Counted from the stretch's first letter, positions 34,204 to 52,264 are shown. The stretch: 64,000 nt of DNA from Saccostrea cucullata (GCF_032062105.1 NW_026920697.1:62001-126000), one strand, 5' to 3'. The notes: generated from the sequence alone by a model not told the origin. Made by a program: numbers and translations.

Positions 34204-37200
34204 ATGATGCGCGCACTGGTTCTTCTAAGTTTACACCTACTGACAGACATCTGGGGATGGCCCTCCTTTAACGACTACATACCAAACGGTGACAAGGTCC
34301 CCAATCCGTGCAACCCCTCCCTAATATGGTACGGGGTGGGGCACCTTGGTGCCCATGGATCAGGACCTAGAAATCAATTTGGAAAAGATTTTCTGAAAGC
34401 CAATAAGGTAAGTTGATTTGAAGTTTTCCTTCGTATAAATAGGTAACAATGAGTACTTTCGTTTGATCTGTACACACTAAGCGCTAGAAGACCCTGGAAG
34501 TAAGGTGACATTGTGGTCAGTATGGACAGGTCATTTACCTATAAGTCATACCTTTATTTACACTTGTGTCCCATGCCCAGTAATTAGTGACTTGATATAC
34601 ACAGCTGACTAAATCTGACCAGTCCATGACAATTGAGTAGCGCATGATTTTATGCATCATTTCCAAAATTAAGACGATAAACATATCTTCACTTGTCTTT
34701 TACCAAAAAGAATAAAATCTGCAATAAACTGGTTTGCATCGTTTGTCACTGATATGTGATTTTTTTTCTCTTCAGAACCAAGCCATAGTAACCAAAGTAT
34801 TTTAAAGTTCAATAATGAATAATAGGATATTTACAGTTACAAATTCATATTTCACATTGTAGGAACATTATATCCACTGTGTACTCATTACTTTCTCTCT
34901 CTCTCACTCTCATTTTTTTTTAAATCCTGGACCCTACCTATTTCATCACACCTGAACTGACAACTCAAGTGAACTTTTCTGATCACCCATTCTCTGTCGT
35001 CCGTCCGTCTGTAAACTTTTCACATTTTCAACTTCTCCTCAAGAACCACTGGACCAATTTTAACCAAACTTGGTACAAAGCATCCCTGGGTGAAGGAGAG
35101 TTTAAATTTTTTAATAAAGCACCAAGCCCTCAGGTACCTGTGGACAGGACCCTCACCCCCCATACCCAACATATTCAAAAACCGGGACTTGTTGGACATT
35201 TTTTTCGCAAATTATATGTACTCGTATTACACTTAATTATCATGTTTACAATAGGGAAAAAATTGTAAAAACCTCAAAATAATCGCTCCACAAAAAAAAC
35301 CCCTCCACTCCACAGTATAGTGGAGTATTTTTTGTGGAGCGATTATTTTGGGGGTTTTACGATTTTTCCTCTTGTACACATGATGAATACGTGTAATAAA
35401 TATAATTTGTGAAAAGAAATTGTCCAACAAGCTCCGGGGTTCCTGGGGCCAGGGGTAGAACCAATGGACCAGGAAAGCTGATATTTATGTGAAAGCATCC
35501 TGGGGCCAGGGGTAGTGTAGATTCTAAATTGTTCAAACATGACCCAAGGGGGAAAAGCGAGGCGACAATAGGGAATCCAAGTTTTTAATTGAAATATACA
35601 GGAAAAATCTTCTTCTCAAGAAACACAAGGCCAGGAAGGCTGAAACTTATGTGGAAGCATTATAAGGGAGGGGGTTGGTCTGGTGAAAAACGGCATGGCT
35701 AATGTATTCAGCCATCAGGTGAGCGTTGTGGCCCATGGGCCTTTTTGGTATAGTAGAACGAATTACTATAGTATAACATGTGCAATAGTTATTCATATGT
35801 TCAAATCCAACTTAATACCAATAAAGAGAGACTGGTTCTTTGGTTTCCCTCCAGAAATGGGAGGACATTTGTCGTCTGGATTCGGACGGGGACGGTCAGT
35901 ACAATGGGCTGGAGCTAGGGGACCCAAACTGTGAGTGGTCCACCACCAACAGGAACCTGACCCTCCCGGCCTTTTCACATCCAGGTAAGGCACGGGGATA
36001 TATTGGAAGTTAAACTGTTGTATTCAATATCTTAAAATTAAAGGAAAGTTTTAATGGTGGGTGGGAATATGTGCCGAAATGTGTTCTCCTATTCTCCACC
36101 CAAAGTTGTCCCGCTTGGCTCCCAACACCTCAGGTGTCTGTGGGAGCGTATTGGAACGGCATACAGAATAATCTCTTGCTCGCTTTGTTTCTTAGATTTT
36201 ATGCTTTCCTCATTTTTAATAACATTTAGATTCAAAATCCTCTAGGTATTTCAACTTAATCGAAGAATTCAAAGGTTTCATTTTTTGCCTAATATGATAC
36301 ACTGGAAGAAAATGGCCATGATTCATAAAACCGACAGACAGCGTAGGTTTGAAAAAAGTGTATTTTTGGATTAACATTCTGAGCGCCATTTGTGTTTAGC
36401 ATATTTGCTAATTTCTGAAAGTTGTCTGAAGATATATTTCACACTGAATGCAAAATCAAATGCAGGAACAATTTCATTACTAGTATATCCTTAGTCTCCC
36501 TCTTCTATACCTGATTTATACAATATTCCAACCTTTGAAAGTGTATTTCAATTTTGTCATAATTTTGCAAACCTTTTGGCAAACAATCTCGAAATCCATT
36601 TCTTTGGCGTAACAGATGTGGAAAATCAGCATCTGTACTTATTTTAAAATAGCATATCTGCATGTAAAATAACACCAGTAGGATTTCCTTAACAATACCA
36701 TCTCTTTACTAATTTGATATTAGGTATCTGTGAACCCTGGGACAGCCCGAGATGTCTTGCTATGAATGGCTCTTTGGACTGCGATGCCGACAAAGTCTCC
36801 ACTAAATGTGAACAAATTGATGAACCAGGTCATTAGAGGATTTTATTTTTTATTGCAATTTTGGCATTATTTTACACAATTTGACATACTGAATATAATT
36901 AAATAACTTTTTATTTCCCCATTTCATTGTAGGTGTAAAGAAGTATGACATGTTCCTTAACAACTATTCCATTCCATTAAAAGAGTGGAGCTTTGTTTGC
37001 CGAATATTCAATTTGCCGACGAATAAAGACTATCACGTGATAGCATCTAAACCAATCAACCACCAGCATAAACTTCTGAAAAAAGTAGCAGTCTATGGAT
37101 GCAGTTAGTATCAATGTATTCTTGGATTGTACATGAGTGTATATTCATTTTTATTCATTAATTTTTTTTATTTTAGATTGAATATAAGACAGTATTTATA

Positions 37201-38815
37201 TATGTAACATTTTAGTCTAAGGATGTAGAGAACAATTTCAAATTTTCTAACAAGGAGCAGAAAAAAGGTCAAACATGAAAATCCATTTATAGGGGGGTAG
37301 GATATATTTTTTTTGAGGGGGGGGGGTAAATTTTCCCTATAGACCAGGCAAGCACTCATTTCATTTTACTACTCATTTAACTCATGAAGATTGAAATGCC
37401 GTTATCATGATTGTAGATCCAAACATGGAACGGATTACACGACTGGGGGTTTTTGAATGCTCCTCGATAATCGCCAAACCTTGTCAAGATCTCATTGCAA
37501 TAATGACCACCGACCAAATGGACCAGGGCAACTGTTTTCCACGTGACGTGGGGCTACAGATTGGCAAAACAGGATACAAGCAAATTCTTATGAAGGTTCG
37601 TACATCTCATTTGTTAGTGAACTTTTCATTCGAGTTGTTCCGATATAACAATATACTATTCTTTACAGTGGACATTTGTCAATCCAAGGAAAGAACAATC
37701 CGTGACACAGGCGGGAATGTCACTGTTCATCACCCCAAATCTGAAGAAATATAACGCCGGGGTGGCCATTCTGGAGGAGACGCACTTCAGCGTGCCGGGA
37801 AACCTCCCTAGTTACTCGGTGTCGTCTGCTTGTCCTAGTTCCTGTACACAGCTCCAAATGAGATCACCAGTTACCATCGTGGCGGGAGTTAACGTCATGA
37901 GGCATTATGGTAATTATAGCTATAACTACCTCCTTGTTAACACCATCTTTCCCGGAAGTCAACGGTTTCTGATCCACTCCTCTCTGCATTAATGCGGAGC
38001 AGAATAGGTCAGAAAGTTTCGACTTGGGAAGATGGAATATCATGCTATTTAGTAAAATTGATCACTGGAGAATTGATTCAAATTGACTGTAAAGATAGTT
38101 TGAATCCCTTGTAGGTGTTAAACAGCGAGTGGATGTTGAAAGAAATGACAGGATCTACAACTCTATTACAAATGACACTAGCTATGACGTTTTCGACCCA
38201 ACTGTTTTCTGGTATAGTGTTATTCAAAATAATGTCTATGCATTGCACAGAGACCTCAGAGTTAAATTGTTCTAATAAGCAAAATAATTTTTTTTTACAT
38301 ATACTAGGTACACAACCCCTGTGCCAGTCCTTCCCGGTGATATGTTGAAGCTGACTTGTGAGTACAACACAATGAATGTGCGCAGTGATGTTAACTGGGG
38401 AATGGGGCCAAATCAGGAGCTGTGTAAAACCATCCTCATCTTTTACCCAAAGGAAAACTGGGACGACCATCACTGTGAAAGCTTTAAAAATATCCCCCTT
38501 TGTGCCTTGGAGATCGGTGATTCTGTGTTTGGGTGTACCTACGGTGGATTTATGACGGCCTTAAATTCAAATCCTCTCTACGACCTCACAAAATGTTCAA
38601 TTTTGTCCACATGTACAGACGAATGCCTGCAACGCGTAACGGCTGTCCGAGGGACGCCTTGTCTCTCAGGAGATATGTACGAATTGTGGAAACTCATGGC
38701 GAGGTCACTGAGAAATAACAAATTAATTACTTTGTTTAAAGCACTTGTAACCTGCGAGGAAAGATATACCACCACTTTGTTAGGAACAAGGTCTCAAAGC
38801 CATGGTAGAGGATAG
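34204..38815 (+). CDS. Temptin domain plus copper type II ascorbate-dependent monooxygenase fold (DBH/MOXD1-like), probably catalytically dead. Exons 34204-34407, 35855-35984, 36724-36828, 36933-37103, 37417-37595, 37669-37909, 38115-38211, 38308-38815
   Basis: Signal peptide; IPNGDKVPNPC...GVGH...GPRNQFGKDF; ICRLDSDGDGQYNGLELGDPNCEW...SHPG (temptin); FNLPTNKDYHVIA, FPRDVGLQIG, TPNLKKYNAG, VLPGDMLKLTCEYNT, ELC...FYP. Confidence 0.9.
34945..35748 (+). mobile_element. HINE-like element in intron 1 of the temptin gene, interrupted by a nested palindromic repeat (~35130-35435)
   Basis: CACCTGAACTGACAACTCAAGTGAACTTTTCTGATCA...GTCCGTCCGTCTGTAAAC start; one satellite monomer like that of 1-1100; CAGGTGAGCGTTGTGGCCCATGGGCCT end. 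Confidence 0.75.
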
Positions 38816-39459
38816 CATTTAAACCTATGCTACCCGTAATCAAATATAGTATATCCTCACTAAGGCTATTCAAAGACTGACAGGAAATTGTATGTTTGTT
38901 TGTTAACTTTATATTAACATGTTACCCCATGCCATATTTTTTTAATGTGAAATGAAGTGTTTCATTGCATTTATGTTTTAAGTGTGCATTACAAAGAATT
39001 TGATTTTTCACCTAACCAGCTTCTTTGACAATTTAACCAAACATCTCTGAAGAGACTGTAACTCTCCTGGTTCTTACTTAGTAAGCAAAGGTAGAGAAAA
39101 GGTGCACTTTGAATTGAACCTATGGCAACAGCAATACATTAAAAAAGTGGAAAACTGTCACTATGACAGCAATCCAGAGGCCTGTTCAACAGTGAGAATA
39201 TTTGCAAACTCTTGCCAAAATTCCTAATACCTCCAACAAAGGTGTTTGCAAGCACTTGCTCTGTTGAACTGGGCCCTGGTTTTGGTTTTCATTGTGTGAA
39301 CAATTTAATTATACACTATCCAAGAAAATCTATTTTAAATGTAGTAGAATGAAAAGTGTGTAGGTTGTCCCAAGATTGGCTCTAGATGGAAAATAACTCT
39401 TGTAAATATGGACATTGTATATTAAAAAAAAAATATATCCTAAAAATTCACTGGTTTGA

Positions 39460-41350
39460 GATAAAACCGATGCACAGAATTAATCTTAGTGTATCTACTT
39501 GTGTGATGAGTTATATTGAAATCAGACCAAAACTGTAGAAGGAGTAGCATTTTAAAGGAATTTCTCAGAAAATTCTATTTTTAGTAACCATGATCAAATG
39601 TTTAAATCAAAAACCGATGCACTATTTTATGTATCTTATAGTCTAATGTCAAGTGATATTGAAATGAGACCAAAACTTTAGAAGGAGTTAGCATTTTAAA
39701 GGAATTTCTGAGAAAATTCTATTTTTAGTAACCATTGCAACACTGCTCATCGAAATCAAAAACCGATGCACTATTTTATGCATCTTAGTGTAGTCTACTT
39801 GTGTGCCAAGTGATACTGAAATGAGACTAAAACTGTAGAAAGAGACAGAGTAGCGTTTTAAAGGAATTTCACAGAAAATTCTATTTTTAGTAACCATGGC
39901 AACATCGTTCATCGAAATCAAAAACCGATGCACTATTTTATGTATCTTAGTGTAGTCTACTTGTGTGCCATGTGATATTTAAATGAGACTCAAACTGTAG
40001 AAGGAGTAGCATTTTAAAGGAATTTCACAGAAAATTCTATTTTTAGTAACCATGGCAACATCGTTCATCAAAATCAAAAACTGATGCACTATTTTATGTA
40101 TCTTAGTGTAGTCTACTTGTTTGCCAAGTGATATTGAAATGAGACTAAAACTGTAGAAGGAGTAGCGTTTTAAAGGAATTTCACAGAAAATTCTATTTTT
40201 AGTAACCATGGCAACACTGTTCATCGAAATAAAAAACAGATGCACTATTTTACGTATCTTAGTATAGTTTACTTGTGTGCCAAGTGATATTTAAATGAGA
40301 CTAAAACTGTAGAAGGAGTAGAGTTTTAAAGGAATTTCTCAGAAAATTCTATTTTTAGTAACCATGGCCACATCGTTCATCGAAATCAAAAACCGATGCA
40401 CTATTTTATGTATCTTTGTGTAGTCTACTTGTGTGTCAAGTGATATTGAAATGAGACCAAAACTTTAGAAGGAGTTAGCATTTTAAAGGAATTTCTCAGA
40501 AAATTCTATTTTTAGTAACCATTGCAACACTGCTCATCGAAATCAAAAACCGATGCACTATTTTATGCATCTTAGTGTAGTCTACTTGTGTGCCAAGTGA
40601 TACTGAAATGAGACTAAAACTGTAGAAAGAGACAGAGTAGCGTTTTAAAGGAATTTCACAGAAAATTCTATTTTTAGTAACCATGACAACATCGTTCATC
40701 GAAATCAAAAACCTATGCACTATTTTATGTATCTTAGTGTAGTCTACTTGTGTGCCATGTGACAGTGAAATGAGACCAAAACTGTAGAAGGAGTAGCATT
40801 TTAAAGGAATTTCACAGAAAATTCTATTTTTAGTAACCATGGCAACATCGTTCAACAAAATCAAAAACCGACAAACTAATTTATGTATCTTAGTGTAGTC
40901 TACTTGTGTGTTAAGTAATATTGAAATCAGACCAAAACTGTAGAAGGAGTAGCGTTTTAAAGGATTTCTCAGAAAATCCTATTTTTAGTAACCATGGCAT
41001 CACCATTCATCGAAATCAAAAACCGGTGCACTAACTTATGTATCTTAGTGTAGTCTACTTGTGTGCCAAGTTATATTGAAATCGGACCAAAACTGTAGAA
41101 AGAATAGCGTTTTAAAGGAATTTTTCAGAAAATTCTATTTTTAGTAACCATGGCAACACCGTTCATCAAAATCAAAAACCGACATATTATTTATGTACCT
41201 TAGTGTAGTCTACTTGTGTGCCAAGTTATATTGAAATCAGACTAAAATTGTAGGAGGAGTAGCGTTTTGAAAAATTGTTTACAGACAGACGCCGGACGCA
41301 TTACTATCGCATAAGTTCTTCTGGTCTCTGACCAGTAGAGCAAAAAAAAT
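39460..41350 (-). repeat. ~156-bp tandem satellite (11-12 copies) within a HINE-like element
   Basis: TAGTAACCA at 39582, 39726, 39888, 40044, 40200, 40356, 40513, 40675, 40831, 40986, 41142; ends with GACAGACAGAC...CTTCTGGTCTCTGACCAGTAGAGCAAAAAA. Confidence 0.92.
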
Positions 41351-43192: not shown

Positions 43193-44676
43193 TCACCTCT
43201 TGGCTGTGGACTTCCTGGACTGCCACATATCAAACTTCCTGTTAGCTGTGGCCAGTAGTTCCTCCATATGACCAGTCAGCTGTGGAACAAAATTATCATT
43301 GTAATCTGTTACTGTCATTACAACAGAAAAAAGTTGAGAAGTTTGAATTAGGAAATAAAAACATAAGCTTGGTGTTTAGTGATGTTCCTTTTAGAAGAAT
43401 TGTGTTTCCCCTAGATAGGAAAATGACATCTTTATGGTGAATAGTACAAATTAATCACAGGTAGTGTTGGATAATATTCATGAATGAATGCCTTTTCACA
43501 AGATTAGGACCTTTACTGAGTGTTCCATGATTATACTGTACTAAAAAAAAAGTAATACACGGGCCTTATAGGTCACCTGAGCATTATGCAACAACTATCC
43601 AGTTACAGTGTATTGAATTTGATTCATGTTTTAAGCCAGATGCTATATGGCATTACAATTTTAAAAATTGATCATCATAACAATAAACTTAGCAGTTGTA
43701 GCTTGGTTATTGAATACCCATAAGCAGGGTAGTGGAATAAGAACTCCAACTAATCAGTAATATTAATCAATCTCTAGTGCCCCTAACACTCTCACATAAA
43801 CCCCTGACCCTAGGTTGCACAAATTTTTAAAAGGCACCCTTAAAATTGCCTATCAAAAAGTAAATAAATGTTTTATAAATACAAAGGATAATTTCAAACA
43901 ATTAATTCATTTTCAGTATATAAAAAGCCCCCACCCCAAACCTGGGGCCTTGAAATTACAATTCTGAGAAAAATTGTTCATCATAACTATATAGGTAGTC
44001 ATCTTTCATAAAGACATAAATTTGATTTAATGTACAATGTATTTTCATAAAATTCAATACAGCCCCACCCTGTGCATATACAGACCCTGGGGTAAATTCA
44101 TAATTTTAGAAGAGGCATTCTTGCTCATCATAACTATGCACTTACTGTATTTAATACCTAGGAGCAGAGAAGAAGATTTTCAAAGAATTCATGTATTTTC
44201 ACTATATAATCAATAAACCCCCCCCCCCCCTACCAGAACCACTGACGCTGGGGCCATAAAATTCACAATTTTTGTAGAGGCACTCTTACTCATCATAACT
44301 ATGTACTTAGTTTATTTAATACTCAGAAGCAGAGAAGAAGATTTTCAAAGAATTCATGTATTTTCACCATATGAGAAAATACTGATCCCCCCCCCCCCCC
44401 CCCCAACACCATAACCCTTGACCCTGGGGCCATAAAATTCACAATTTTGGTAGAGGCACTCTTGCTCATCATAATTATTTACTTACTTGGTTTATTTAAT
44501 ACACAGGGGCAGAGAAGAAGATTTTCAAAGAAATCATGTATTTTTACTATATAATCAATAGAGCCCCACCCTAACACCAGAACCCCTGACCCTGGGGCCA
44601 TAAAATTCATAATTTTGTAAGGCAATCTTGCTCATTATAACCATGTACTTAGTTGGTTTATTTAATACACAGGAGC

Positions 44677-44710
<34 letters not shown>

Positions 44711-47700
44711 CACTATATACTTATTTAGCCCTGCCCTAGCACTAGAACCCCTGACCCCAGGGCCATGAATTTCACAATTTTGGTAGAGGACTCAATGCTG
44801 ATTACAATCATGCAAATAGTTTGACTGCTTGATGTCCAGGAGTAAAGAAGAAGATTTTTAAAGATTGCATTAATTTTAGTGGTTTTGGCCCCACCCCTCA
44901 CCCCAGGGGGGCAGGGATCATGAAATTCACAATTTTTGTTCCCCTTCACCCATAGATGCTTTGTGCCAAATTTGGTTGAATTGGTTCAGTGGTTGCAGAG
45001 AAGAAGCTGAAAATGTTCAAATGTTAACACACGACACACGACACACAACACACGACACACGACGGACGACGACGGACGAAAACGGATAGCAATAGGTCAC
45101 CTGAGTTTACTCAGGTGACCTAAAAAAGTAATACATCTATAAGTAGGAAACAAGAAGACCTATCAGTACTTGGAATGTGTAATGATCTTCCTGAATGGGA
45201 AATACATATTAGAAAGTTAGACTTACATTGAGTGTGTAGTGGTACTCCTGAAGTCGTTCCTTTAGGGGAATAAGCTTTGCCATTTGAAACCTCTCTAGTG
45301 TAGACTTCATTCGTATAACCTTCAGCGCAAAGAAAAATAAATTTATGTATTTATTTTAAAAATAATTTCATAAGGACATGGCAAAAAAAAAACCTAGGTA
45401 GATTTACAGATAGAGAAAAATTGTGAATGTCTTTTATAAATCATATACTTGATTTCGAACAAATATAAAATTCAATACATTTATGTGCATATAAATTGTA
45501 AATGCTTGGGATTTCTCTTAATTTCTGTGTGTAATGGATGGCTAGATCTTTATGCAATGATTATACCTAATGTATCTCAGAAGTCTGATAAGCACATACA
45601 TGTACATATACTGGTACATACAGAATAGGAAACCATGTAATGTGCCATTTTTACCAAAGAAAATACTGATCATCCAGCAGTTTGAAGAGGTACAAAACAA
45701 AGTGGAAAATTTATATTGATGAAATACATGTACACAGTTCAATATATTCATGGCAGAAAATGCACCATTTTAAAACTCAAAACACTTGTAAAACTTTACC
45801 GGTAATAAGATTTCTACTGAAATATGCAATGAAAATCTTCTGACCATCCTTGGGTAAGCTCTGTAGAAGAGGCACACTTAGCATTTAGTGTGCTTGGATA
45901 AATGGCCTATGTATCCCCTACCTTTTCCTCCAGTGATTTAGATGACACAGGAAAACAGGTCCAGAAATGTCGGAGTAGCTCCAGCAGAGCGCTGTAGTTA
46001 GCCTTCACTTCCTCCTGAACATCTTGTGGGACTATCTCTGTCGACAATCGGGATCAGAATGAGTCAGAAGAAAATGATACTTTTATTTGATTAGCGACCT
46101 GCGCCCATCACCATGTGCAGTTAAGAATTGAGCAAAATTTTACATCACTTCATTTAAACGTTTTTTGATTGGGAAAAAGCTACATGACCAATCATGCCTC
46201 AATATTCCAAAATAGGATCAAGACTTTGATACTCACGATTAAGCTGTTGATGACTTGTTCCTTTCATTAATGCCCCTCCTGGTGACAATTCACTGAGTAT
46301 TACAATGGCCCGGGACCCCTGAAGTACCTGAATAATAAATAACACCTCATCTTCAGATAGTCACAATGTAAGGGCTTGATATGTACTATTTCACAAAGCA
46401 ATGAAATAATGAGTACATGCCAAATTTTAAAATGACCATAAAAGATCTCCATCTATATACAATGTTAGCATCCACAATCATATCACTAATTAAAAACATC
46501 ATATCACTTTCATTTTAAATTTTCACAAAAAATTTAAATATCTAATTAAACATTCAGTCAATCATTTGCATTGATGATTGACTTTTCCTACAATTACATA
46601 CAGTGACCTACATTTGAGAGATCAGGTGACCAGTATTCAACGTCACGCATCACTGACTCTGATGCTTGAACAAGATCTTCACTAGTTGTATATCGGGACA
46701 GAGTGACGGGTGTCGGCCCATGTAAATAGCCCTCCATCTTGTGTAACTGGAGATTCACATTCTTTTTACTGTTTGTATCTCTCAGATCATCCATGTGAAT
46801 TTTTTCCTGAAGTCTTTGTTTTTTCACAGCTGGTTCCCAGTAGTCTTTACTGGTACCTGGCTCGGAGTCTTCTCTGGCCACCCCATTCACCTTGGGAGCA
46901 TCACTGCCATTTTGAGTATTGCTCTGCTGTGAAGCATGGTCTTTCTGATTAGAGTTCAGAGCGCTTTGTGAGACTTTTGTACAAGCCTTTAGCACCATTG
47001 TTGAGTGATGATTAAATCTACGAATCATGGTTCCGTTCGTTACATTACTACTGATCCGTGTGTCTTCTGTTTGTCCTCGATAATCCTGGAATTATAAAAC
47101 TCAATAAAAGATCTTACTAGTAAGACAAGCCCAATAAAAGTCACTGTGCAGAATTACAATGGCACCTTACGTACCTCGTGAACAGAGGAGTCTGAGATTT
47201 TAGTGAGATCCAGGAAGGGGTCGGACATTTTCACAGAAATCTCTTCTTTCATGTCTGAAATAAAAACAAATTTTCAAACGTGGACACCATGAGATATCAA
47301 AATGTTATAAACATTATGCATGACATAAGTTTCATGTTAACATTTTCTCAGCAAAATTCATACATTTTTGATAATTTTATCACCAACCTTTTTCATCACT
47401 TTTGGCACAATCTGAGAATACATCTTTTGTTCCCATCACGGTCCGATCTCTGTGGAAGTAATGGGACTGGAAAAACCTCGTCCAGAACTCACTCTCCGTC
47501 ATGTCATGTGGAACATGCTCTGCATGCTTCTTCTTCACTGTTGAAAAACATAAAATAAGTATATAAATTCAGATTTTTCAGCTTTGCATTACTTTTATTT
47601 CGTTTACATGTATCTTACCCATGGGATAGGTTCAGGAAATAGACTAGACAATGTTTGTTATCTTACCCATGGGATAGGTTCAGGAAATAGACTAGACAAT

Positions 47701-50700
47701 GTTTGTTTGTTATCTTACCCATGGGATAGGTTCGAAATAGACTAGACAATGTTTGTTATCTTACCCATGGGATAGGTTAAGGAAATAGACTAGACAATGT
47801 TTGTTTGTTATCTTACCCATGGGATAGGTTCAGGAAATAGACTAGACAACGTTTGTTTGTTATCTTACCCATGGGATAGGTTCAGGAAATAGACTAGACA
47901 ATGTTTGTTTGTTATCTTACCCATGGGATAGGTTCAGGAAATAGACTAGACAATGTTTGTTATCTTACCCATGGGATAGGTTCGAAATAGACTAGACAAT
48001 GTTTGTTTGTTATCTTACCCATGGGATAGGTTAAGGAAATAGACTAGACAATGTTTGTTTGTTATCTTACCCATGGGATAGGTTCCAGAAATAGACTAGA
48101 CAATGTTTGTTTGTTATCTTACCCATGGGATAGGTTCAGGAAATAGACTAGACAATGTTTGTTTGTTATCTTACCCATGGGATAGGTTCGGAAAATAGAC
48201 TCAATGATGTCTGCTGTCAGGTTGTATTTTAATCCATTACATCCATCTGTCTGAGGCTTTATATCAGCCTATACAAGTAAACAAAGGGTTAAAGTTATAT
48301 TTCAAACAAAATTAAACTATTCATATTATACTTGTAATATTACCATTTTCCTCCTTCTTTTGTCAAATCTGGAACTAAACTAGGATACATGTATTTATGT
48401 ACCAGGTATTTAGATAAAAGAACAGATGTCTTTACATATTAATCAAAGTGAACAAATCAGATCAGAATAATCATATCTAAGATAAATTCATCTGCATTCT
48501 AGATCTATATCAAAGCTGCAATATTCCGAATTTAAGTCAGACTGATAAAATAAATCTGAAAATTGATGTAAGATGGTATACATTCTTAGTGGCAATTAAA
48601 AAATCTGAGTCAGAATAATGTGCCTATTTAAGAAACTGATGTAAAATTTCTACCAAGAAAGCTGCTGATACTCCAACGCTCTGTGACTTCTCTGGTTTTG
48701 TATTGCTTTGGTTTTTCTAAAATGAGACAAGATGAACATGAAGGATAACACAGGACTCTCAAAGGAAGTATTCAGAGTCAAACTGGATTCATATGCTGCT
48801 GGTTTTGGCACAGATTGTAATTAGCCAATATAAGACCAATCAGAGTAAAGATAATATAATTATAAAGATAGGGCTTAACAATAGCAGAGTAAAATGTTGA
48901 ATAAAAACTCTTCTGTTAAAATATCACAAAACAAGATCTAGAATTCTTATAGAAGTTTTTAAATCATTTATCACTGAGGACATAAAGTTAATTTAAAAAA
49001 TTATACTGCTTACAACATACCTGTCAACTCTCCCGAATTTATCGGGAGTCTACCGATTTTTAAGCATCCCTACCGACTGTCTACCGATTTTTTTTTAAAC
49101 TGCCGTTTCTACCGATTTTGAAAAAATCCGGATTTTTTACCTACTTGGGTTCGTAAAATACCGATTAGTCAACACAAAAATGGAGGACATGCAGTGTTTA
49201 CCGATAGCTAATCTGTTTATTGCCACTGATAACAGGTAATCAACAAGGTGTCAACTGTGCTAGCAGATGTAATTGCAGTTGTAATTGCTCCTTGTTCTCA
49301 TTAAAAGTGTATATTATCAAAGACAGAGATGCCAATGTGAAAATTTTTACAGAACATGATGGTAAATAACATACTTGACACTTTGCTGCAAATAAGTTTA
49401 CAAGTGTCTAAGACAAAACTATTTCTCCATAAACAATACAGTGATCAGGAAAGATGTAGCTACAGTACTCTATTATTAATTTAACAAGGAGAGGGAAACA
49501 ATTTCATGGAAGCTAATATAAATGAAGAGTCTGAAGATTTCCCCACAGATTTTGAGATTCAATCTCTTAGTAAATCCTGCATCAACATCAGCATATAACA
49601 GCCCCTGGAACTACAGAGCAACAAGACAGTCAGTGTCTTTAGAAGACTTCTTTAAAGCTAAACAGGGTAATACATTTCTGAATTAAAATATAAAATTAGC
49701 ACATTAGAACATTACTAATTAAAAAAGTTTTATATTTAAAAATTCTGATATATGTTATGAGATTAAAAGGAAAAAAAAATACAGGGTCAATTATTTCATT
49801 CATACTAGATTACACATTATTTTAAGAATATAAGCATGAAATTTTGACATTTATTTCAATTTCAGATCTTTAAATCCAGGACACAACTCATGTAGACTTA
49901 ATGAGAAAATCCATTCATCCATCTATTAAAAGCTGAAAACTTGGACTGTCTGCAGAACCTTATTAATTTTTCTAATTGCCAAGTTGAACTATGACACTTG
50001 CCATGAATATTATATAAATGATGGTCTTATGGACAGACAGAATATATAGCATGTATAGTGAACATAAATTTTTATGATTTCAAAATTAAATCACATTGCA
50101 CAAGTTTCTAAACAATGTATGAATAAACAGTAAATTTTATGAATTATTGATAATGTTAATATTAATAATAAAGTTTTATCTTGTAAGTTGTTTATTTTTT
50201 TCTATTAAACAGTAAAATGAACGACTTTTTGTATTTGCAAAAGGTCGTCGCGCGTTTTCTCCCCCGAAAAATTTTGGCCATGTTGACAGGTATGTTACAA
50301 GGCTTTAGCCTTAACGATATCATGTAGTAGAGTTTAACTCTTAATTTTAAAGTCTCAACCCTTAAAGTTTTTAATTTATGAGAAAAAAAATTTACCCTTG
50401 AGGCCCAGAATTCATCAGCTGTGATGACTCCAGTTACTACCAGGTCTTTGTACAACTGGAATAACTCAGGGTTATCCTGCAGCATCCTGTGTAAACAAGA
50501 TTCAAGACAAGTTGTACAAATTGAACTTTGTTCTTGAACAAGATCTTACATTTCATACATTTTGTTTGCTATTAACCTTTACTGGAATGAATTAACCATC
50601 AGTTTTCAATTGTTACAGATCATAAGACAAAAGTTTGGCTAGCATGTATCAGAAGATGCTTCCTGCTGCAGAATCTAATTCCAGTTTTTCTTTTAAGATG

Positions 50701-52264
50701 TGACTGTATGTTTTGGTTGTGCAAAATTGAAAATTTAACTTTTTAAAGCCTTGAACAAAAATAATATTTCATGATAAAAGTGCTGGCGGGTGATAAAAAT
50801 ATTCTGGACTTTCTTAAGTTTATTTTCCATAAATAAATAGTTATGGATTCTATAAACTTAAGAGAACCATTGAGATCCAATTTTAATTTAAGATCTACTC
50901 GTTTATATTGACCTGTTTTTCTCCTCCAATTCACTGCTGAGTTTCCGTCGGAATTTTGGTATCAGCTGTTGTAGGAGGTCCTTTACACTGTCTCGGTCAG
51001 CAATAGCTGCTGCCCGTCCCTTAGGGTTGATGAAGTGAAATGTGTTGGCCCCTCCATCATGTAGAACCAACTGTAACTGAACCTTCTCTTTAGAGTCGGG
51101 AGAAATTTTCTGGGCTAAAATGACAATTTCACAATAAAATACATGATTATTATAAGGCTTTTCTATACAAAAAAAAATTAGGATCTTCCTCCCAGGTCTC
51201 TTCTGATGATTTTCTGATTTTAACTTGATTTTTTCCCCCAAAAATAAACGCAAATATGTATCATTACTTTCAAATGTATCTGCTATTGTTATTTTTGATG
51301 AAAATATAACATTTCGAACCTTTTAATCATTTTTCCTCCTTTAATAGACAATCAGCAGGTAACATAAAATCTATTGACTAGGGGTGGGACGATACACACA
51401 TCTTGCCTACGTATCCAGGTCTCTTCTGATATTATGATAAATTATAAAACTATTCCAAATAATAAGTATTTTATAGACATTAAATCAACAAATTATTCTA
51501 CATCAAATCATGTTAACTTTGCTTTGAAATTAATACTTGAAGTTCATCAATTTCAATAAAACTCTACAAAACATGATACATGTACATACTATTATTACAG
51601 AATTTGTTTACAAATAGTTGTGTATTTCTACTAAAATTCATTTAAAAACATCGATCATATTTACATTATTATTAAATCATTGCTGAAAGTGTGTCGCCAA
51701 GTTGAGATTACAAAAAAAGTACGAGATAGATTAACAATTTATAATATCAAATGTACTGGAAACGATATTTTCTGTGTATAGAACGCATTTCATACTGAAT
51801 AGCCTGCTTAAAAGTGAAAACGTTTTACCCTTAATCAACGACTTATTAGTTCTAAAGTGTGTCTTCAATATCAAAATGATCTCTTCACTTCGTAAATCAT
51901 TTTCAAAGGACAGGTACTTTCATTTTCAATTTTTGGATGGGTCGTTCGTGTATCGTTTCGTACCGATATTTGAATGCTTGTATCGTAAACCGTATCTTGA
52001 AGGAAAAATATCGGTATGTATCGGTGTATCGGTATATCGTCCCACCCCTACTATTGACCTTTAATGTCAGCGTACATAGAGCTGTCAGATGGAGTATAAA
52101 AGCTACTGACCTTTAATGTCGGCATACATATAGCTGATGGAGAATGTGCTTTTGCTGCCCTGCATCCATCCCATTCTCTCGCCCATCATGTATAACGTCC
52201 CATCCGTCTTCTTGTTGCGGACATTGTTAACAATGAGCAGCACTTCCTCTGACCTTGCTGCCAT
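43193..52264 (-). CDS. GTF2H1: General transcription factor IIH subunit 1 (p62). Exons 52264-52111, 51114-50913, 50486-50396, 48716-48654, 48268-48175, 47537-47388, 47254-47175, 47085-46612, 46327-46237, 46037-45922, 45319-45227, 43279-43193
   Basis: [25 protein letters not shown]; [24 protein letters not shown]; [27 protein letters not shown]; [30 protein letters not shown]; [16 protein letters not shown]; [13 protein letters not shown]; [12 protein letters not shown]. Confidence 0.96.
43555..45126 (-). mobile_element. HINE/Helentron-like element with ~180-bp tandem satellite in the last GTF2H1 intron
   Basis: TAGGTCACCTGAGTTTACTCAGGTGACCTAAAAA palindromic end; (GACAC/GACG)n microsatellite; repeated GCAGAGAAGAAGATTTTCAAAGAA; GGGCCTTATAGGTCACCTGAG at the other end. 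Confidence 0.8.
47611..48200. repeat. 46-52-bp minisatellite (12 copies) derived from a GTF2H1 exon end plus 5' splice site
   Basis: Unit TATCTTACCCATGGGATAGGTTCAGGAAATAGACTAGACAATGTTTGT(TTGT). Confidence 0.95.
49016..50294. mobile_element. 1.28-kb non-autonomous DNA transposon, 13-bp inverted ends, 6-bp target-site duplication
   Basis: CATACCTGTCAAC ... GTTGACAGGTATG flanked by TTACAA on both sides. Confidence 0.82.
51379..52050. mobile_element. hAT-type MITE (672 bp)
   Basis: Inverted ends TAGGGGTGGGACGATA / TATCGTCCCACCCCTA; 8-bp duplication CTATTGAC at 51371-51378 and 52051-52058. Confidence 0.88.

Follow-up and report, generated by a model that had tools for sequence, protein, structure and literature searches.

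How does a gene fare when the donor that closes one of its exons is followed by eleven further copies of itself, and which of the twelve does the splicing machinery take? The question is raised by the fifth exon of GTF2H1 in the oyster Saccostrea cucullata, in a window of 64,000 nucleotides (the whole stretch of DNA analysed, from whose first letter all positions are counted). GTF2H1/p62 is a core transcription and DNA-repair protein, and an earlier, sequence-only reading of this DNA had seen an essential gene obliged to select one of twelve identical 5' splice sites, with the array as a potential U1 decoy, recursive-splicing platform or switch of nonsense-mediated decay (NMD). The answer put forward here, in which we have considerable confidence, is plainer: a piece of the boundary, reaching from ~35 bases before the end of exon 5 into the first part of intron 5, was repeated head-to-tail, spliced contigs use the first donor, and the other eleven donors are likely silent passengers.

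The GTF2H1 gene and the array in intron 5

The gene lies on the minus strand, where exons 1–10 (45922..52264) give 505 codons without a stop when joined through the first donor; the last exon, near 43193-43330, falls outside the joined model. Its identity is given by exon 6, which matches the p62 structure in the PDB (E 5.6e-22), and BSD and PH_TFIIH Pfam domains were found in five of the eight stretches scanned. Exon 5 (94 nt, 48175..48268, minus strand) carries the start of the second BSD domain, the remainder of which is encoded by exon 6 (150 nt, 47388..47537, minus strand), and the four introns downstream of the array are backed by joints in spliced contigs. GTF2H1 is single-copy in the assembly G000, and a second copy or allele in that assembly was rejected, since each query returned one match. 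Satellite arrays with a period of 156-166 also occur in the window, at 27-1005, 39483-41268 and 44094-44793, the last of them sitting between exon 10 and the last exon; presumably they resemble the common oyster satellite.

Intron 5 measures 637 nt, and 556 nt of it are occupied by eleven units of 46-52 nt. Together with the exon end, these units form a minisatellite (47611..48201, minus strand) delimited by TRF, by the donor positions and by alignment, for which TRF gives a period of 52, 11.7 copies, 92% matches and a score of 1021. Its twelve minus-strand donors, each of them ATGG followed across the splice site by GTAAGATA, stand at 48174, 48122, 48070, 48018, 47968, 47920, 47868, 47816, 47764, 47718, 47666 and 47618. 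The first is the authentic 5' splice site (48167..48174, minus strand), and copies 2-12 extend over 47611..48122 on the same strand. From -14 to +8, 22 nt are identical in all twelve donors, while the other parts of the unit vary. Thus, the picture of twelve tandem donors that begin at an exon end and fill most of the intron is borne out in the assembly, as is the need to choose one of them, all twelve being intact.

Each unit opens with the donor, continues with an A/C-rich spacer and closes with a copy of the final ~35 nt of exon 5. The unit aligns to the end of exon 5, the first unit spanning the true exon–intron boundary, which confirms the derivation from the exon end that had been proposed. 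The proposed make-up of the unit needs amending: a repeat of exon end plus donor it is, but its length is 46, 48, 50 or 52 nt rather than a uniform 52 nt, and the spacer had been missing from the description. Behind the array, the last donor and the non-repeated remainder of the intron, 81 nt with a T-rich acceptor (47538..47618, minus strand), lead into exon 6; this remainder likely represents intron 5 as it was before the expansion. Certain changes relative to exon 5 are common to all units, and two variant unit types return at a five-unit spacing, seen by TRF as a higher-order period of 254 nt, a pattern that random sequencing error would not give. Within G000 the unit was matched at the GTF2H1 locus only, in a search that skips very common words, and a dispersed repeat family as its source was rejected on that basis.

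Relation to known boundary minisatellites

Judged by its sequence, the array is an exon-boundary minisatellite of the 'mirage' or F7 type, that is, a head-to-tail array derived from a boundary in which the donor is repeated intact. Such minisatellites are already known as a class, to which the GTF2H1 array, taken alone, adds one more example, with a protein that is likely unchanged; the locus itself is ordinary.

The closest comparison is the 37-bp VNTR of human F7 intron 7, for which it is reported that splicing takes the most upstream donor only, that the next takes over when the first is mutated, and that the choice is unchanged in minigenes with 1-6 or 8-12 monomers (PMC1557585). There too the first monomer spans the exon–intron boundary and identical donor copies stand behind it; however, the F7 monomer has 4 exon bases, 5-9 copies and a weak donor, whereas the GTF2H1 array has ~35 exon bases and 12 strong donors and belongs to an invertebrate, and in F7 the choice of the first donor was put to the test by mutation, whereas in GTF2H1 it is read from contigs (PMC1557585). 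The same excerpt lists the LMNB2 and PDGF intron 4 minisatellites, in which the first donor only is used, and those of CBS intron 13 and 6-16 intron 2, in which two further nearby donors are used (PMC1557585). All four repeat the donor 10-25 times within the intron, as does GTF2H1, and the additional donor use in CBS and 6-16 differs from the GTF2H1 contigs, of one sample, where none was seen (PMC1557585, as excerpted).

Lancelet 'mirage' minisatellites, found in Adh3, in the globins BflGb6 and BflGb9, in troponin C and in PGBD5, are described in the available extracts as tandem copies of exon–intron boundaries that are reportedly harmless to splicing (PMC3087553, PMC3902484). They share with the oyster arrays a marine invertebrate host, an occurrence in many genes and the presence of both donor and acceptor sides, but come from another phylum, and it is there that length instability was shown (PMC3087553, PMC3902484, same extracts). 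In the 25-bp VNTR of human ABCA7 intron 18 the second donor is used, and array length is reportedly related to expression but has no effect on NMD (PMC5954066). As in GTF2H1, the donor opens each ABCA7 unit, and splicing at the second donor keeps one unit in the transcript and shifts the frame; the ABCA7 unit has nothing of the exon beyond the boundary, and its effects on expression were measured, whereas the GTF2H1 unit holds ~35 exon nt (PMC5954066).

Donor usage in spliced contigs

Among the 21 runs listed, four (X1, X2, X5 and X6) were compared with the flank, made up of the last unit and exons 6–10, while X9–X21 (share 0.10) were left out. X1 and X2 consist of spliced contigs from one sample; contigs lose rare forms, and NMD would deplete others. 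In each of these two runs a single contig crosses the acceptor of exon 6, with 27 letters that fit the last unit and a loose end made of exon 5 letters, and in the X2 contig two letters differ from the last unit and match exon 5. Since the loose end runs into exon 5 letters, the junction is that of donor 1. The first-donor junction is thus the only one to appear in both spliced-contig runs, which represent one sample whose exons differ by ~2-4% from the window. None of the contigs aligned from X1 and X2, again of this one sample, carries unit-specific letters, and because of the ~2-4% difference in the exons the animal may itself be without the array. The DNA contigs of organism B (X5 and X6, from one sample) end 77-78 letters past 47542, near the start of the array in the window, and leave the unit uncovered, which counts neither for nor against an array there; a repeat or a heterozygous site could be the cause of these ends.

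Predicted consequences of the other donors

The reading frame is open through donor 1 only. Splicing from donor 2 would lengthen the exon by 52 nt and shift the frame, exactly as had been claimed for the next donor, with a stop at codon 230, and donors 3-12 all run into a stop within unit 2, at codon 220. Donors 4, 7 and 10 add multiples of three, but their in-frame use was rejected because the stop in unit 2 is read. The copies are as strong as donor 1, the U1 duplex at the array donor reaching -9.2 kcal/mol, the best of the five donor positions scored.

On the preferred reading, the array would have begun with a single local duplication across the donor, followed by a few changes, and slippage or unequal crossover would have expanded it, including the duplication of a block of ~254 nt. 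The spliceosome would commit to the most upstream donor, as in human F7, a rule known from mammalian cells only; upstream-donor choice would leave the mRNA unchanged, so that selection would not remove the array. Rare use of donor 2, with its stop at codon 230 and at least four junctions downstream, would presumably be removed through NMD. To the process that built this array the genome likely owes several hundred others of its kind.

How rare that use would be is where the strongest alternative departs, namely a leaky VNTR of the CBS/ABCA7 kind, in which donors 2-3 would send a measurable share of transcripts to NMD and copy number or unit type would shift the GTF2H1 dose as a side effect. 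Donor copies that are intact and equal in strength to donor 1, an early stop from every alternative donor, and the use of nearby copies reported in excerpts for human CBS and 6-16 (PMC1557585) and for ABCA7 (PMC5954066) are what such leakage would build on. We nevertheless consider it unlikely: the two spliced-contig runs, which count only slightly here, hold no unit-bearing junction, donor choice in F7 is independent of monomer number (PMC1557585, as excerpted), and ABCA7 length is without effect on NMD (PMC5954066, likewise). These last two observations also weigh against the NMD switch tuned by copy number that had been suggested for this locus.

Far less probable is a regulatory device maintained by selection, be it a U1 decoy, a micro-exon series or a recursive-splicing platform, despite the 22 nt that remain unchanged at all twelve donors while the rest of the unit varies and despite the genome-wide excess of donor arrays described below. 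An AG does precede each donor, although the distance once given as ~25 nt is in fact 23 or 25 nt within a unit, and each AG has its own upstream donor only 23-27 nt away. In all eleven units the pyrimidine fraction ahead of this AG is 0.41 (A ~0.5), compared with 0.59-0.76 at six acceptor positions of the gene, one of which was taken 3 nt off. Inclusion of a single micro-exon of 23 or 25 nt is out of frame by each of the eleven routes, with a stop at codon 210 or 221. The ratchet point of recursive splicing is an acceptor AG directly before a donor GT inside a long intron, and AGGT has zero occurrences in the 637 nt of intron 5. With unit AGs that lack a pyrimidine tract and an intron without an AG/GT point, the micro-exons and the recursive-splicing platform of the sequence-only reading find no support. 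As to the decoy, eleven extra sites would be negligible beside the cell's U1 pool. The identity of the donors would be explained by a young array.

RNA structure offers no further reason for selection. The fold of the array region is unremarkable (z 0.18 against 20 shuffles), and mean pairing is 0.72-0.83 at donors 1-11 and 0.56 at donor 12. With pairing nearly even across donors 1-11, the fold gives donor 1 no advantage, and the idea that structure hides the extra donors was rejected on these two grounds.

Least credible of all is that the assembler made the array or its length: no run holding the array itself was found (best share of words 0.28), but the units carry their shared changes and the 254-nt pattern, and the same anatomy, with its own units, is present at many other loci.

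Donor arrays across the genome

In the literature searched, no genome-wide census of mirages with controls was found. The pattern counted in G000 consists of three GGTAAG spaced 46-56 nt, which is one period band, and its matches are not in themselves arrays. GGTAAG gave 2892 matches, and the same-letter controls GAATGG, GGATAG and GATAGG gave 761, 461 and 507, respectively. The background was counted in 263 kb, made up of the window and of 20 stretches, each of 10 kb, drawn from six large contigs; it came to 99 for GGTAAG and to 132, 64 and 82 for the controls in the same order. Set against these background counts, the matches amount to a donor excess of ~4-5 fold, in an unannotated assembly and relative to controls matched by letters and not by GC. 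Among contigs up to C1721, a GGTAAG array was present in 20, and each of two controls had an array in 6 (pooled p 0.0008); with GGATAG as the sole comparison, 20 versus 6 contigs is not significant (p 0.065). About 22 clusters per 100 listed matches would extrapolate to ~600 clusters in total, haplotype duplicates included.

Twenty GGTAAG loci, from 19 of the 20 contigs, were examined, 19 of them with a frame long enough to scan. In 11 of the 20, of which 10 are independent, the reading frame ending with the first donor holds a Pfam domain (best E 2.2e-4 or lower): Arf, Rubicon, EF-hand, alpha-mannosidase, carboxyl transferase (two near-identical copies), PH, kringle, ankyrin, FH2 and 5'-nucleotidase. 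As the genes of these 11 loci are unrelated in function, nothing singles out GTF2H1, and the notion of a layout special to an essential gene gives way to one that recurs at many exon ends of the genome.

A donor-blind set of 40 loci was also assembled from two control lists. It leaves out the GTF2H1 locus, C1147, which the donor set had included, six look-alikes or second clusters, and the GGATAG entries after C8495. Frames were selected differently here from the donor set: in 34 loci, with both strands considered, 115 frames ran across the edge of an array, and five loci gave a Pfam match. Four of the five (IMPDH, ZMYND11, Tudor and fibrinogen) have a same-strand donor motif at the 5' edge, and the fifth is a coding repeat (WAP). 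In one of these four, L083, an exact GGTAAG is first met 107 nt into the array. At the 3' array edge, none of the 115 frames from the 34 loci matched Pfam. Arrays that start at a coding donor thus make up 4 of 40, versus 0.6-1.7% expected (p 0.0001-0.005) with an assumed 150,000-400,000 introns. Two further arrays of the control lists, L077 (36 units) and L088 (42 units), have donor motifs and exon-like sequence upstream, with no Pfam match; they are likely further mirages, and 4 of 40 may therefore be an undercount.

Acceptor side and meaning

The acceptor pattern TTTCAG gave 1134 matches in G000, versus 868 for its control GACTTT, and after background correction there is no acceptor-side excess (4.0 versus 4.1 matches per background count). 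A dispersed repeat family with an 11-nt period and TTTCAG, seen on C261, C365, C798 and other contigs of G000, makes up many entries of the acceptor list, and the list is confounded by this one family.

Tentatively, and with the balance tilted somewhat against it, exon ends might be hotspots of minisatellite birth in this genome, with an excess on the donor side only and none on the acceptor side. Were this so, it would speak for a mutational process linked to donors or for a 'first donor wins' filter acting across the genome, and an invertebrate would offer several hundred natural reporters, variable in length, of how a 5' splice site is chosen. A genome-wide donor excess, if it holds, would raise what have been oddities of single genes to a rule of mutation or splicing that can be measured, and hundreds of arrays in one animal could put the upstream-donor rule of F7, and the frequency of leakage, to the test in invertebrates.

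Further observations on individual arrays

The largest donor array seen, at L057 (2284-3871), has 61 copies of a 26-nt unit, 43 of them with the exact donor motif, behind a 5'-nucleotidase exon. At L045, L046 and L052, in EF-hand, alpha-mannosidase and kringle genes, the unit is mostly exon (33-44 of 46-50 nt), and these loci could be cases of in-frame use or of intron sliding. One 47-nt donor array is present on two short contigs that are likely haplotypes, at L041 (G000:C202) as 3.2 + 6.3 units in two clusters and at L049 (G000:C1272) as 15.1 units. Finally, L047 and L048 (G000:C1160, near 35300-41000 and 106800-112500) are near-identical segments of a carboxyl-transferase gene, which we take to be acetyl-CoA carboxylase-like. 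Copy number differs between these paired copies, the donor array having 15.3 units in L047 and 11.0 in L048, and acceptor arrays ahead of an open frame, of 18 copies in L047 and 35 copies in L048, are found on exons near the donor arrays.
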